64,000 nucleotides of DNA from an uncultured Actinomycetes bacterium (GCA_963839285.1 CAWIUN010000009.1:13016-77015); one strand, 5' to 3'; shown: positions 44,325 to 49,011, numbered from the stretch's first letter. The notes: generated by a model not told the origin, from the letters alone. A program made the numbers and translations.

Positions 44325-44799
44325 TCAGCAGAGCCGGGCGAGGCGGCCGGTGTCGACGTCGTAGAGGAAGCCGCCGACCTCGAGGCCCTGCAGGTACGGG
44401 TACGAGCGCACCCGCTGCACGTCCGCGCGGACCGTGTCGGCCGGGTCGCTCGTCGCCAGGAAGGCGAGGCTGCGCGTGTCCGGGCCGCCGGCCTCCTCGA
44501 CGGCGGCGTGCAGGTCGTCCTCGCTGCCGGTCGTCATCCGGCAGCGCGTGTGTGCGATCACCATCGCCCGCTCGACGCCGAGCAGGTAGAAGGCGAGGAC
44601 GAGGGTGCGCAGGACGTCGTCCGTGACGCGCGCGCCCGCGTTGCGCAGGATCTTCGCGTCGCCGGGGCCGAGGCCGAGCATCGAGAGCGGCTCGATCCGC
44701 GAGTCCATGCAGGTGAGGATCGCGAGGCCGCGACCGGCGACGGGGCGGCCAGCGCCGCGGGCGTAGTGGCGGCGAGGAGTCGGCGAACGGGTGCGCCAC
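44325..44799 (-). CDS. Beta-class carbonic anhydrase; probable frameshift in the N-terminal about 30 codons (about 44770)
   Basis: LAILTCMDSRIEPLSMLGLGPGDAKILRNAGARVT...MVIAHTRCRM contains the CxDxR and HxxC zinc ligands. The ORF track starts at the internal Met of CMDSR. An upstream GTG at 44799 (VAHPFAD...) is in another frame. Confidence 0.8.
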
Positions 44800-44938: not shown

Positions 44939-45474
44939 ATGGCGAAGGGCTGGGTGGCGTTGCTGCGCGCGGTCAACCTGGGGCCGCGGAACCGCGTGCC
45001 GATGGCGGAGCTGCGCGCGCTGCTCGAGGCGGAGGGCTTCGAGGACGTGCGCACCTACATCGCGAGCGGCAACGTGCTCTTCCGCGCCGGCGGCGGGCGG
45101 GCGGCGCTCGCGCGCAGGCTCGAGGAGCTGATCGCGGCGCGCTTCGGCGTCGAGACCCCGGTCGTGCTGCGGAGCTTCGACGAGCTGCAGGCGGTCGCGT
45201 CCGGGCACCCGTTCGGGGACGACACCGCGCAGACGCACGTCACCTTCCTCGCCGCGAAGCCGTCCGCGAAGGCGGTCGCGGGCCTGCGCGCGCTCGAGCT
45301 CGGCGACGACACGGTCGCCGTCGTCGGCGCCGACGTCTACGCGCGGCTGCCGAACGGCGTCCAGGGCGCCCGGGCGACGGCCGCGGTGCTGGAACGGCAG
45401 CTCGGCGTCCCGGGCACGGCCCGCAACTGGCGCACCGTCACGAAGCTCGCCGAGCTGACCGCGCCGAGGCCTGA
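44939..45474 (+). CDS. DUF1697 domain-containing protein; 3' end uncertain
   Basis: MAKGWVALLRAVNLGPRNRVPMAELRALLEAEGFEDVRTYIASGNVLF...GTARNWRTVTKL matches DUF1697 over about 175 aa. The ORF itself stays open to 45721 as antisense of the next gene. An out-of-frame TGA at 45472-45474 sits at the expected end. Confidence 0.75.
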
Positions 45475-45692
45475 TCCACACGCCTCTCCCTCAGAGCCTG
45501 CGCGCAGACGAAGAGCTCGCGGTCGGGCTTGCGGGCGACCCGGACCGGCACGTGGTCGACCCGGAGCACCTTCCACCAGGCGCCGTGCTCGACGAGGGCG
45601 CCGACGCGCGGCGTCTCGTCGAACAGCTTCTCGTCCACGCTCCAGCGGCCGTCCGGGAACTCGAGCTTCAACGTGTAGACCCCTGCGCTCAT
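45438..45692 (-). CDS. Hypothetical small protein
   Basis: ATG 45692 is preceded by GGAGGAG at ideal spacing. MSAGVYTLKLEFPDGRWSVDEKLFDETPRVGALVEHGAWWKVLRVDHVPV... looks like a beta-rich globular sequence. No family recognised. Confidence 0.5.
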   Translation of the reverse strand: MSAGVYTLKLEFPDGRWSVDEKLFDETPRVGALVEHGAWWKVLRVDHVPVRVARKPDRELFVCAQALRERRVDQASARSARRAS

Positions 45693-45840: not shown

Positions 45841-46624
45841 TTGGATAGGCGCGTGGAGCGGCGCTGCGCGATCGTGACGGGGGCCGGCACCGGCATCGGC
45901 CGCGCCGTCGCCTCCCGCTTGCGGCCGACGGGTACGGCGTCGTCCTCGTCGGCCGTCGCCGGGAGCCGCTCGAGCGTGTCGCCGCCGGGCTCGAGGACGC
46001 CGTCGTCGCGCCGGCGGACTGACCCGGCCGGACGAGCTCGAGACCGCCGTCGCCGCAGCGGCAGCCGCCTTCGGCGGCGTCGACCTGCTCGTCGCGAACG
46101 CCGGCGTCGGGACGAGCGCGGCGGTGCTGGAGGAGACCCCGGAGAGCTGGGAGACCACGCTCGGGATCAACCTGACGGGCGCCTTCCTCGCGACCCGTGC
46201 CGCGCTGCCGCACCTGCTCGAGCGGCGCGGCTCGGTCGTCTACGTCGCCTCGGTGAACGCGGTGCTGGCGGGACCGGGCTGGACGTCGTACTGCGTCTCG
46301 AAGGCGGGGCTCGTGATGCTCGCGAAGTGCGTCGCGGGCGACTACGGCCGCCGCGGCGTCCGCGCGAACGCGGTCTGCCCGGGCTGGGTGCGGACGCCGA
46401 TGGGCGACGAGGACATGGACCGTGTCGCCGCCGCGCGCGGCACCGACCGCGAGGGCGCCTACCGGCTCGTGCACGAGCGCCACCCGCTCGGCCGGGCCGC
46501 GGAGCCCGAGGAGGTCGCCTCGGTCGTCGCCTTCCTCGGCTCGGACGCGGCCGCCTACGTCACGGGCGCCTCGATCATGGTCGACGGCGGCACGACGGTC
46601 GTCGACCCGACCGCGCTCGCCTGA
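45841..46624 (+). CDS. SDR family oxidoreductase; two -1 frameshifts (about 45920 and about 46019)
   Basis: AIVTGAGTGIGRAVA / AADGYGVVLVGRR... / ...NAGV...SVNAVLAGPGWTSYCVSKAGL (YxxxK)...PGWVRTPM...TGASIMVDGG. Confidence 0.85.
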
Positions 46625-46647
46625 CCCCGCCTCGCTAGGATCGGGCC

Positions 46648-46863
46648 GTGGCGCGCGTCGAGATCCTCTACTGCCCCGTCTGAAGCGGGTACGACCGACG
46701 GGCCGCGAGTCTCGCGGCCGAGCTCGCGCAGCGCGGCATGGAGGCCGAGATCCGCGAGGGCGAGACGAGCCAGTTCGACGTGCTCGTCGACGGCGAGCTC
46801 GTCTTCTCGAAGCAGCGCGAGGGCCGCTACCCGGACGCCGACGAGCTCGCCACGCAGGTCTAG
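46648..46863 (+). CDS. SelW/Rdx-family redox protein; candidate selenoprotein with in-frame TGA (46681-46683) at the CxxU position
   Basis: GTG 46648 with AGGA 7 nt upstream. VARVEILYCPV-TGA-SGYDRRAASLAAELAQRGMEAEIREGETSQFDVLVDGELVFSKQREGRYPDADELATQV-TAG. The frame and high GC3 continue across the TGA. Compare mammalian SelW YCGAUGY. Missing from the ORF track because of the TGA. Confidence 0.6.
46701..46719 (+). promoter_or_regulatory. SECIS-like hairpin 17 nt downstream of the in-frame TGA
   Basis: Perfect 8-bp stem GGCCGCGA / UCGCGGCC with a GUC apical loop. The GU in the loop lies 28-29 nt from the U of UGA, within the spacing used by bacterial SECIS models. Confidence 0.45.
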
Positions 46864-48218
46864 CGCCGCACCTCGCCCGTCGTGGTCAGGTTCGAGGCGA
46901 GCGTCGGGTAGCGCTCGGTCAGGAGCAGCAGGTAGCCGAAGGTCTGCGCCTGGTAGCGCAGGCAGTAGGCGGCGAGGTCGCGCATGCCCCTCGGGACCCG
47001 GCCGATGCAGACGGCGACGACCCAGGCGAGGACGCCGACGAGCTGGAGCACGTAGCCGAGCACGGACATGAGGACGTAGGCCGGGATCACGAGCACGATC
47101 CGCAGGGCGACCTTCCAGCGCTCCTGCTCGGCCGGCGGCGCGATCACGACGTCGACCGGGTAGCTGCCCTCCCAGCCGCGGAAGCTCGGGTACGGCTCGG
47201 CGACGAGCCACGTGTAGGCGTTCACGTGCGCCTGGAAGCGGACGAAGCGGGCGAGGAACGCGTGCAGGCCCGCCGGGATGCGGCCGCGGACGAGCGCGAT
47301 CGCCCAGCCGACGACGGCGGCGAGGAGGGCGACGAGCTGCCAGCCGGCGAGGACGGCGAGGAGCGGCAGCGCCAGGACGAGCCGCAGCGCCGCGGTCAGC
47401 CGCCAGCGCACGCGGTCGTCGGCGACGACGAGCTCGACCGGGTGCCGCTCGGGCGCCGCGCCCGTGAACTGCGGCTCGCGCTTCTCGCGGAAGGCGGCGA
47501 CGCCCTCGGCGAAGTCGGGCGTCTTCGTCGCCTCCGACTGCAGCCGCGCCTCGAGCTCGAGCTGCTGCTCGAGGGTCGCCGTGCCCGCGTGGTCGAAGAG
47601 CCTCTTCGTCAGCGCGATCCCGCGGGTCGGCATCTCGGCGTAGCGCTCGGCGAGCTGGCGCGCGTGCCGCTCGAGCTCGTCGTCGGGGACGACCGCGGTG
47701 ACGAGGCCCCACTCGAGCGCCTCCCGGGCCGAGAGCTTGTGCCCGCTCGTCATCCACTCGAAGGCGCGCGCGTAGCCGAGCAGCCGGTGGACGAAGAACG
47801 AGCCGCCCGCGTCGGGGACGAGGCCGATGCCGATGAACGCCGGCACGAAGCTCGCCGACTCGGCGGCGATGCGGACGTCGCAGGCGCAGGCGAGCGAGAG
47901 CCCCGCGCCGGCGGCGGGCCCGTTCACGGCCGCGATCACCGGCTTCTCGAGCCGGCGGATCGCGAGCACGTTCGGGTGGTAGCGCTCGCGGAGGGCGTCG
48001 CCCGTGTCCATCTGCGCGAACTCGGCGAGATCCTGGCCGACGCAGAAGCCGCGGCCGGCACCGGTGAGCACGACCGCGCGGACCGCCGGGTCGGCGGCCT
48101 GCCCGAGGGCGTCGCGCAGCGCCGCGTGCGCCGCCCCGTTCAACGCGTTCAGCACGTCGGGACGGTTCAGCGTGATCGTCGTCAACGCGCCGTCGCGGCG
48201 CCACTCGACCTCGGCCAT
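46860..48218 (-). CDS. Enoyl-CoA hydratase/isomerase (PaaG-like crotonase) fused to a C-terminal DUF4389-like membrane domain
   Basis: Residues 1-255 form a crotonase (LNRPDVLNALN...GAGRGFCVGQDL...AAVNGPAAGAGL...AFREKREPQFTG). They continue without a stop into ERHPVELVV...RWRLTAALRLVLALPLLAVLAGW... with 4 TM helices. Confidence 0.85.
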   Translation of the reverse strand: MAEVEWRRDGALTTITLNRPDVLNALNGAAHAALRDALGQAADPAVRAVVLTGAGRGFCVGQDLAEFAQMDTGDALRERYHPNVLAIRRLEKPVIAAVNGPAAGAGLSLACACDVRIAAESASFVPAFIGIGLVPDAGGSFFVHRLLGYARAFEWMTSGHKLSAREALEWGLVTAVVPDDELERHARQLAERYAEMPTRGIALTKRLFDHAGTATLEQQLELEARLQSEATKTPDFAEGVAAFREKREPQFTGAAPERHPVELVVADDRVRWRLTAALRLVLALPLLAVLAGWQLVALLAAVVGWAIALVRGRIPAGLHAFLARFVRFQAHVNAYTWLVAEPYPSFRGWEGSYPVDVVIAPPAEQERWKVALRIVLVIPAYVLMSVLGYVLQLVGVLAWVVAVCIGRVPRGMRDLAAYCLRYQAQTFGYLLLLTERYPTLASNLTTTGEVRR

Positions 48219-48241: not shown

Positions 48242-49011
48242 TCAGCCGGTGAAGCGCACGAGCGCCAGCGCGACGAGCGCGATCCCGGCCGGCGCGAGCG
48301 CGGTCACGTCGATCGCCGGGACGACGCCTGCTAGAGCAGACGGGCGAGCTCGGCCGTGCCGACGGCGAGCGCGAGGCCGGCGGAGACGCTCGTCAGCGCG
48401 AGGTTCCAGCGGCGCGTCGCGAGCGCCTTCCGGTAGGCGCGCGCCATCGCCGCGGCGTCGGCGCTGTCGATCAGCGTCATCCCGGCCGAGAAGACGAGCG
48501 GGAGCGCGAGCACGACCGGCAGCGGCGCGCCCGCGGTCATGACGACGAGGACGAGCACGCTGGCGGCGTCGAAGCCGAGCCCGAAGACGAGCCCGAGCGG
48601 GTAGAGGTGCCACGGCTTGGCGATCCGCGCGAAGAGCCGGTCGAGCCGGTGCCGGCGCGTCCGCATCAGCGTCAGGTTCGAGACGCCGAGCGCGCAGAGC
48701 GTCGTCCCGGAGACGGCGGCGCCGACCTCGGGCGAGGGCAGGACGCCGAGCCCGTACGAGGCGGCGACGACGACCGCGAGGACGACGGTCGAGTGGCCGA
48801 GCGAGAAGATCAGGCCGACGGGGCCGCCGCGCAGCTGCCGCCGGGTCGCGTTGTCGATCGCGAGCAGGTGGTCCGGGTCGAAGCCGTGCCGGAGGCCGAG
48901 CACGTAGGCGAGGCCGGCCGCGCCGAGCAGCGAGGGCCGGGCGCCGGCGTAGAGCCCGACGAGCGTGAGGCCGGCGACGTGGAGCACCGCGATCGGGACG
49001 ACGACCTTCAT
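48242..49011 (-). CDS. NiCoT (HoxN/HupN/NixA) family nickel/cobalt transporter, short form; probable -1 indel at the annotated stop (48331)
   Basis: LRHGFDPDHLLAIDN, FSLGHSTVV and GLGFDAAS signatures. After the TAG at 48331 a further TM helix (AGVVPAIDVTALAPAGIALVALALVRFTG) continues in another frame to 48242. Confidence 0.8.

Follow-up and report, generated by a model that had tools for sequence, protein, structure and literature searches.

We examined a stretch of 64,000 nucleotides from an uncultured Actinomycetes bacterium (GCA_963839285.1 CAWIUN010000009.1:13016-77015), here called the window, in whose coordinates positions are given. A gap of 235 bp, between the stop of an SDR gene (46624) and the end of a convergent gene (46860), holds a frame for a small protein of the Rdx/SelW family that is interrupted by a single TGA. 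This TGA is very probably read as selenocysteine (Sec), at the instance of a hairpin just downstream that would serve as a bacterial selenocysteine insertion sequence (SECIS). The features of the locus are as follows.

46636..46641, plus strand: -10 hexamer TAGGAT (TAnnnT), 6 nt before the start codon; includes AGGA and the frame-closing TAG
46648..46863, plus strand: predicted coding sequence of an Rdx/SelW-like selenoprotein, 71 residues, V/M-ARVEILYCPV-U-SGYDRRAASLAAELAQRGMEAEIREGETSQFDVLVDGELVFSKQREGRYPDADELATQV, then stop
46648..46650, plus strand: GTG start codon, probable 5′ end of a leaderless mRNA; GTG or ATG lies 10-11 codons before the TGA in 84/84 related loci
46672..46683, plus strand: redox motif C-P-V-U (TGC CCC GTC TGA), codons 9-12, aligned with CEPC of MIEN1 and CTQC of Atu0228
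46681..46683, plus strand: in-frame UGA, predicted Sec codon (codon 12); TGA in 85/85 loci, with a TGT variant in locus L087
46699..46720, plus strand: candidate SECIS-type hairpin of bacterial kind, 8-bp stem 46701-46708/46712-46719, apical loop G-U-C 46709-46711
Stem base, plus strand: optional extra pair C46699-G46720, with G46700 bulged
46708..46710, plus strand: Ser codon AGT (83/83 distinct sequences), formed by the loop-closing A together with the G-U of the loop
46861..46863, plus strand: TAG stop, in a 4-nt overlap with the end of the convergent gene

The frame comprises 72 codons. An in-frame TAG (46636-46638) shuts it four codons 5′ of the GTG, which is therefore the sole possible start. 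A preliminary description of this DNA, made from the sequence alone, had given the gap, the frame with its start, stop and internal TGA, and the translation, and all of these were confirmed. It had further claimed that the frame and its high G/C at codon position 3 run on across the TGA; the third-position G+C fraction, taken over adjacent codons (at most 40 per side), is indeed 0.93 upstream and 0.95 downstream, the window as a whole being 74% G+C. When both strands of the 64 kb were scanned, this was the only TGA with strongly coding in-frame flanks on both sides. As an ordinary stop, TGA is the commonest in the window, ending 19 of 36 long open reading frames while TAA ends none, and the Rdx genes of relatives terminate in TGA at 63 of 84 loci. 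With TGA a normal stop in both the window and its relatives, the code is the standard one and a local recoding signal is needed at codon 12.

A protein search gave 396 relatives. In a collection with one genome per species, 476 stretches that encode a relative were located, and 80 of these were fetched, the pattern GYDxRAASLA being used for retrieval. Almost all of the fetched loci are from metagenome-assembled genomes (MAGs) of Gaiellaceae, Gaiella or Thermoleophilia, contributed by many studies and sequencing platforms. The comparison set consisted of 84 related loci, or 85 with the window, and codons were counted over 83 distinct sequences. Codon 12 is TGA in every one of the 85, at 64-76% protein identity. 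The frame ends 60-72 codons past the TGA in the relatives, and substitutions are biased to the third codon position upstream as well as downstream of it. The VEIxYCPV stretch is conserved; the Cys and Pro of the motif are invariant in the 84 related loci, the Cys being TGC in 83/83 distinct sequences. Recurrence of the same codon in 84/84 independent assemblies bears out the view that the TGA is not a sequencing error. An alignment of orthologues, suggested beforehand as a way to see whether Cys or Sec occupies the site, returned this uniform TGA together with a natural TGT form. It is close to certain that the locus is a real conserved gene, translated through its TGA.

Public annotation of the family suffers at precisely this codon, as had been anticipated for standard gene callers: most entries either are truncated at the N-terminus or carry W in place of the TGA. 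Among the 396 protein relatives are many fragments of 39-60 aa that start past the TGA, while YCPVW is the usual reading in the nominally full-length ones. In two such entries, P0030 (L001 10001-10225) and P0006 (L004 10001-10219), the underlying DNA is TGA where the database protein has W, and both products have a second W at the genuine TGA stop; the W at codon 12 is thus a translation artefact. Many further JGI entries likewise show W for TGA or start past it, and the family's sequences are mostly wrong at or before the active site. At this site the remaining full-length entries show C, R, G or L, from codons that all lie one base from TGA. The DNA was checked for P0001 (L087; TGT), P0013 (L088 1518-1520; TTA) and P0018 (L089 881-883; GGA), each of which is a single short contig; the Sec codon is similarly replaced by a one-base neighbor in P0012 and P0019 (R), P0023 (G) and P0031 (L). 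Contigs with a replaced Sec codon and an intact hairpin are either recent loss-of-Sec variants or base-call errors. The apparent excess of such non-TGA variants arises only because gene callers are able to predict them. Cys forms number only 2 among about 80 sequences inspected, namely P0001, verified in DNA, and P0014, seen as protein sequence only. The TGT form supplies a Sec/Cys pair, and its hairpin is partly decayed, with a U-C mismatch and a G-U wobble.

For profile tests the read-through product was used with U replaced by C. Pfam Rdx (PF10262) matched with 49.7 bits against a gathering score of 22.6, residues 3-71 aligning to profile positions 1-72 of 74, and NCBIfam TIGR02174 (CXXU_selWTH) with 47.0 bits against a cut-off of 34.2. 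The best NCBIfam match by E-value was NF041051 (SelTWH_Campy), which aligned end to end; equivalog membership is ruled out by its score of 50.8 bits, below the cut-off of 88, and only the broader subfamily applies. In a sequence search of the PDB all matches were Rdx-family members: MIEN1 (the top match, E = 4.8e-6), Atu0228, SAV_2001, a Vibrio ‘SelW-related protein’ and a ‘SelT/SelW/SelH domain’. Their CxxC aligned with CPV[U] of the window product, CxxC being the form in the solved bacterial homologs. The fold was modeled (AlphaFold2, AF2) on P0001, the natural Cys-form homolog, which is 70% identical to the window protein. This model has a mean confidence (pLDDT) of 93 and the order beta-alpha-beta-beta-beta-alpha, with beta-1 at residues 3-8, alpha-1 at residues 15-28 and the CxxC/CxxU motif between the two. 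With Foldseek its top 23 PDB matches were all SelW-related or Rdx proteins; mouse SelW had a template-modeling (TM) score of 0.64 and the other 22 had scores of 0.78-0.86, with thioredoxins next, far behind. The family layout first recognized from the sequence alone, with the TGA at the Sec position, is therefore upheld by both profiles and by the CxxC alignment, and the profile search that had been proposed for the U-to-C product returned its match above the gathering score. By sequence, and by fold as predicted for a close homolog, the window product belongs to the SelW-like/Rdx family, and it would be expected to act as a thiol/selenol redox protein.

The hairpin, GGCCGCGA-GUC-UCGCGGCC, is a perfect 8-bp stem-loop at 46701-46719 that begins 17 nt past the TGA, just as initially reported, and the likeness then drawn to the G-U in the loop of the E. 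coli fdhF element was borne out when the fdhF sequence was verified. Counting from the T of the TGA, positions +20 to +38 are almost invariant in the 83 distinct sequences, whereas variation is free in the codons beyond them. At the closing pair, +20/+38, 77 of these sequences have G-C, 5 have A-U, 1 has C-G and none is broken; the pair +23/+35 is C-G in 71, U-G in 8, U-A in 1 and broken in 3. Compensatory changes at these two pairs answer affirmatively the earlier question of whether the hairpin is kept in orthologs. In an alignment of 75 sequences (GC 68, AU 5 and CG 1 at +20/+38; CG 63, UG 8 and UA 1 at +23/+35), 98.4% of cells are paired, against 23-56% when the partners are slid by 1-3 columns, and the observed number of double changes was reached by 0 of 500 shuffles.

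Codon usage within the hairpin provides the strongest single fact in its favor. The Ser that spans the loop is encoded by AGT in 83/83 sequences, a codon that serves for 2.1% of Ser in 656 background ORFs from the same loci, while between 3 and 5 codons are in use for the two other conserved Ser residues of the Rdx gene. For the adjacent Leu the codon is always CTC, and for one Ala always GCG (83/83 each). Judged from these alignments, selection acts on the nucleotide sequence of the hairpin. Its 19 nt also encode part of alpha-1 (R-A-A-S-L-A-A), so that a requirement on the RNA would freeze both codons and amino acids there. Loop G-U is the part of the hairpin recognized by SelB in SelB-SECIS complexes. 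By the published description (PMC1088965), a bacterial SECIS is a stem-loop that directly follows the UGA and has a G in its small apical loop; the window hairpin has this geometry.

Two further structures were considered and set aside: a small hairpin enclosing the UGA, which is not conserved in relatives, and a lower stem (46685-46690/46722-46727), which is specific to the window. A search for other genes of the same loop type (in-frame TGA, stem of at least 7 bp, GUC loop) gave none that was credible outside Rdx genes. In a divergent lineage of lower G+C content (L090 493-560, and L091 with the identical sequence) the TGA is retained, and a hairpin of another sequence stands at the same place, GCGGGC-CGUGA-GCC(U)CGC, whose loop likewise contains G-U; it is nested in a 6-bp outer stem (CGACAA/UUGUCG) and represents a second SECIS variant of the family.

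All 84 related loci have a GTG or ATG start 10 or 11 codons before the TGA, and a classical Shine-Dalgarno (SD) sequence precedes it at only 5. At 79 of the 84 a TAnnnT hexamer stands 5-8 nt before the start, mostly at 6 nt (50 loci) or 7 nt (25), where chance would give 0.17 loci; relative to the start codon its letters are T at -12, A at -11 and T at -7 (79/84 loci), with G enriched at -15/-14. In mycobacteria and actinobacteria the rule is TANNNT centered 7-12 bp before a purine transcription start site, often with S-R-N 5′ of it and without a -35 element (PMC3898074). A scan of the window locus for E. coli-type two-hexamer promoters and for terminators gave no match, which for the promoter is as expected. 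The AGGA noted in the preliminary description is present, 7 nt upstream of the GTG, but is not an SD sequence: it is the middle of the TAGGAT -10 box and reads as promoter rather than as ribosome-binding site, because the relatives conserve TAnnnT and rarely an SD. Most probably, therefore, the Rdx gene is driven by a promoter of its own, and its mRNA starts at the GTG without a leader.

Two larger genes flank the Rdx gene.

46860..48218, minus strand: convergent gene encoding an enoyl-CoA hydratase (ECH) fused to DUF4389 (Pfam ECH_1, 219 bits; DUF4389, 88.6 bits)
45841..46624, plus strand: SDR gene, readable only with two frame switches (three-frame translation)

Of about 78 loci where the sequence extends far enough, 64 have a convergent ECH gene directly 3′ of the Rdx gene; DUF4389 is present at about 25. 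As the genes converge, this neighborhood is one of conserved synteny and not of co-transcription. Some relatives have separate DUF4389 and ECH genes (L089 1050-2864; L090 659-3041), as against the fusion in the window. An SDR gene was found within 2.5 kb of the Rdx gene at none of the related loci and is not a conserved neighbor. In the window it reads AIVTGAGTGIGRAVA in one frame, LAADGYGVVLVGRRREPLERVAAGL in a second, and its C-terminal two thirds in the third. Other neighbors are a beta-carbonic-anhydrase fragment (44325-44708, minus strand), a DUF1697 protein (44939-45500, plus strand) and a NicO-type nickel/cobalt transporter (48331-49011, minus strand); these have no obvious link to selenium.

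We propose that transcription from the TAGGAT promoter would yield a leaderless mRNA starting at the GTG, on which the ribosome would meet UGA at codon 12. The hairpin 17 nt downstream, with G-U in its small apical loop, would serve as a bacterial SECIS and recruit SelB-GTP-Sec-tRNA(Sec), so that Sec would be inserted in place of termination. Translation would then run on to the TAG, giving a protein with the active site Cys-Pro-Val-Sec. We put the probability that the inserted residue is Sec, delivered by the SelB/SECIS mechanism, at roughly 0.88; both Sec and SelB as its reader are inferred.

Several results weigh against this proposal. ARAGORN runs on the 64-kb window and on the 84 related loci detected no tRNA-Sec. 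In tblastn searches with E. coli SelA, SelB and SelD against the window and about 1.4 Mb of related loci, neither SelA nor SelD was found, and SelB matched through its GTPase domain only. The records ERZ25039602, ERZ25039577, VAXT01, JBKPQP01 and WNGO01, which bear SelA, are not among the 80 Rdx-bearing assemblies. The hairpin is of ordinary folding energy for 74% G+C (z = -1.24 over 48 nt and +0.26 over 71 nt), and its significance therefore rests on conservation and not on thermodynamics. Covariation is thin, six of the eight core pairs never varying among Gaiellaceae-type sequences that are kin to one another. Retrieval with GYDxRAASLA partly builds in amino-acid identity at the hairpin, leaving the synonymous-site evidence unaffected. 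Rfam release 15 gave no match to the whole window at the gathering threshold, and at E up to 10 only chance microRNA-like matches to 46550-46950. Finally, the two frameshifts of the SDR gene mark either a decaying gene or assembly indels, and the sequence of the window, or else the genome, is not error-free.

Some of these points can be qualified. Loci that came from the protein search (L001, L004, L087-L089) are free of the pattern bias and have the same hairpin nucleotides. Bacterial SECIS elements are poorly covered by models of the Rfam type; the search with a SECIS model that had been recommended was run by way of Rfam, and its lack of a matching family is regarded as uninformative rather than negative, since no model akin to a bacterial SECIS came up to the threshold. 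ARAGORN made two odd calls, a 95-nt ‘tRNA-???’ with a 4-base anticodon (L067 3010-3104, minus strand) and a 97-nt ‘tRNA-Thr’ (L055 16178-16274, minus strand); neither has a UCA anticodon, and on inspection both look to be false positives in G+C-rich coding sequence.

Sec machinery was sought more broadly by scanning metagenomes with a high-GC back-translation of the SelA motif around the pyridoxal-phosphate lysine, a motif verified in E. coli SelA. This gave 120 SelA loci, many with selB, selD and tRNA-Sec(UCA). One of them, L160, is a selA-selB-selC cluster whose tetranucleotide distance of 4.0 lies in the core of the Gaiellaceae distribution (leave-one-out median 4.4); its tRNA-Sec directly follows selB. 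SelA of the L160 type belongs to an abundant soil lineage, with more than 120 clusters at 89% identity or above, labeled ‘Actinobacteria/Actinomycetota bacterium’; its MAG contigs reach 2.99 Mb and encode a full SelB with the SelB winged-helix domain. In this lineage an O-methyltransferase-like gene (Pfam Dimerisation and Methyltransf_2) lies between selA and selB and overlaps both in L213 (11296-12246), L215 (3458-4408) and, in shorter form, L212 (11296-11811).

The MAGs with Sec machinery include ones of the same series as Rdx-bearing MAGs. Between Rdx loci and SelA loci blastn gave weak, paralog-level matches only, and the core motif of the hairpin has a single, non-coding occurrence in the SelA loci. 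Ranked by tetranucleotide distance to the window, the first 21 loci are without exception Rdx loci; L194 and L131, the closest of the SelA loci, fall within the same range of distance. The soil Actinomycetota clusters are circumstantial support for Sec decoding in the lineage, as distinct from the window genome. The literature searched yielded no report of Sec use by Gaiella or Thermoleophilia.

Two other accounts accept the hairpin and differ in what it does. The UGA might be recoded without canonical SelB and Sec, the hairpin driving insertion of Cys, for example by a tRNA-Sec-like Cys tRNA, or near-cognate read-through by Trp, Arg or Gly. No Sec-machinery locus was traced to an Rdx-bearing assembly, and the TGT, TTA, GGA and CGA/AGA variants (the last known by translation), with their intact hairpins, suggest that other residues are tolerated, in assemblies at least; these variants, however, are single short contigs, one base from TGA. 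The site, moreover, is the U of CxxU in a family defined by Sec or Cys at that position, and the loop keeps the G-U recognized by SelB at the cost of a 2% codon. Cys could be had from TGC or TGT with no hairpin, yet TGA is kept in 85/85 loci. We consider this account improbable. Alternatively, the hairpin might have another role, as attenuator, RNase site or protein-binding site, with the UGA ending an 11-codon leader and the Rdx part made from a downstream start. Gene callers do find downstream ORFs of 39-60 aa, and the stem is more invariant in sequence than SECIS stems usually need to be. The product of such a start would nonetheless lack beta-1 and the whole redox motif, although VEIxYCPV is conserved and the profile match begins at residue 3. 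In-frame starts past the TGA first occur anywhere from 8 to more than 60 codons after it, with no SD-like motif at 77 of 84 loci, and the conserved promoter and start are both upstream of the TGA. This makes the leader account very improbable.

That the window copy is a pseudogene, or its TGA an error of sequencing or assembly for TGC or TGG, could be suspected from the adjacent SDR gene, whose two frameshifts betray error or decay nearby. Against this stand the TGA in 84/84 independent assemblies from many studies and platforms, purifying selection on both flanks of the TGA, and the intact frame, start, stop and hairpin of the window copy, by which the suspicion is effectively refuted. Beside Sec insertion by SelB, there is a slim chance that the UGA is recoded without the canonical SelA, SelB and tRNA-Sec; the hairpin would then drive insertion of Cys or another residue, or have a second, regulatory role, for example in selenium- or redox-dependent control of a leaderless transcript. 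If true, a very abundant soil lineage would possess a novel type of programmed signal for UGA recoding.

The locus calls for a correction of annotation. A real, expressed-looking gene is restored to DNA that is left blank or truncated by gene callers, a mistake that recurs across hundreds of public Gaiellaceae/Thermoleophilia genomes and metagenomes. Decoding of the UGA as Sec, which we prefer, would further imply that the Gaiellaceae, a widespread aerobic family of soil actinobacteria, use Sec. A compact, nearly invariant SECIS of 19 nt, with the UGA about 33 nt from the 5′ end of an apparently leaderless mRNA, may offer a convenient model of Sec insertion in high-GC Gram-positives. The known workings of selenoproteins are unchanged by the finding; modest interest is added by the near-universal presence and systematic mis-annotation of the gene in an abundant soil lineage, by an invariant SECIS that doubles as coding sequence for alpha-1, and by the probable leaderless transcript.

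The E. coli fdhF SECIS is, like the window element, a hairpin within the coding sequence 3′ of the UGA. Its loop is GGUCU where ours is AGUCU, and its loop G-U stands 22-23 nt from the U of the UGA, compared with 28-29 nt here. The fdhF SECIS has a bulged U close to the loop; unlike it, the window stem is a perfect G+C-rich 8-mer whose sole candidate bulge is G46700, at the stem base. Mouse SelW (PDB 2npb) and MIEN1/C17orf37 (2ljk) have the same fold as the window protein and the same position of CxxU/CxxC, at an identity of only about 25%. In eukaryotic SelW the SECIS is differently structured and lies in the 3′ untranslated region, where it works with SBP2 and eEFSec, whereas the window element is in-frame and bacterial in type.

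The closest counterparts are the bacterial SelW-like selenoproteins (PF10262; TIGR02174), with CxxU and an in-frame SECIS, described in 2005-2006 by Zhang, Gladyshev and co-workers and the most abundant selenoprotein family in Sargasso Sea data (PMC1088965, PMC1794560). They share with the window gene a size of about 70-80 aa, the thioredoxin-like fold, a CxxU near the N-terminus, a SECIS hairpin within the coding sequence just 3′ of the UGA, and a scarcity of Cys-form homologs, few of which are known in Sec-using organisms (PMC1794560). The gene has every testable feature of the SelW-like family and of a bacterial selenoprotein gene, a kind known since 2005. It differs from the known members in that the SECIS of the Gaiellaceae-type genes is unusually invariant in sequence, in that the gene is apparently leaderless, and in its host: this soil Actinomycetota lineage (Gaiellaceae/Thermoleophilia) is not treated as a Sec user in the literature searched.

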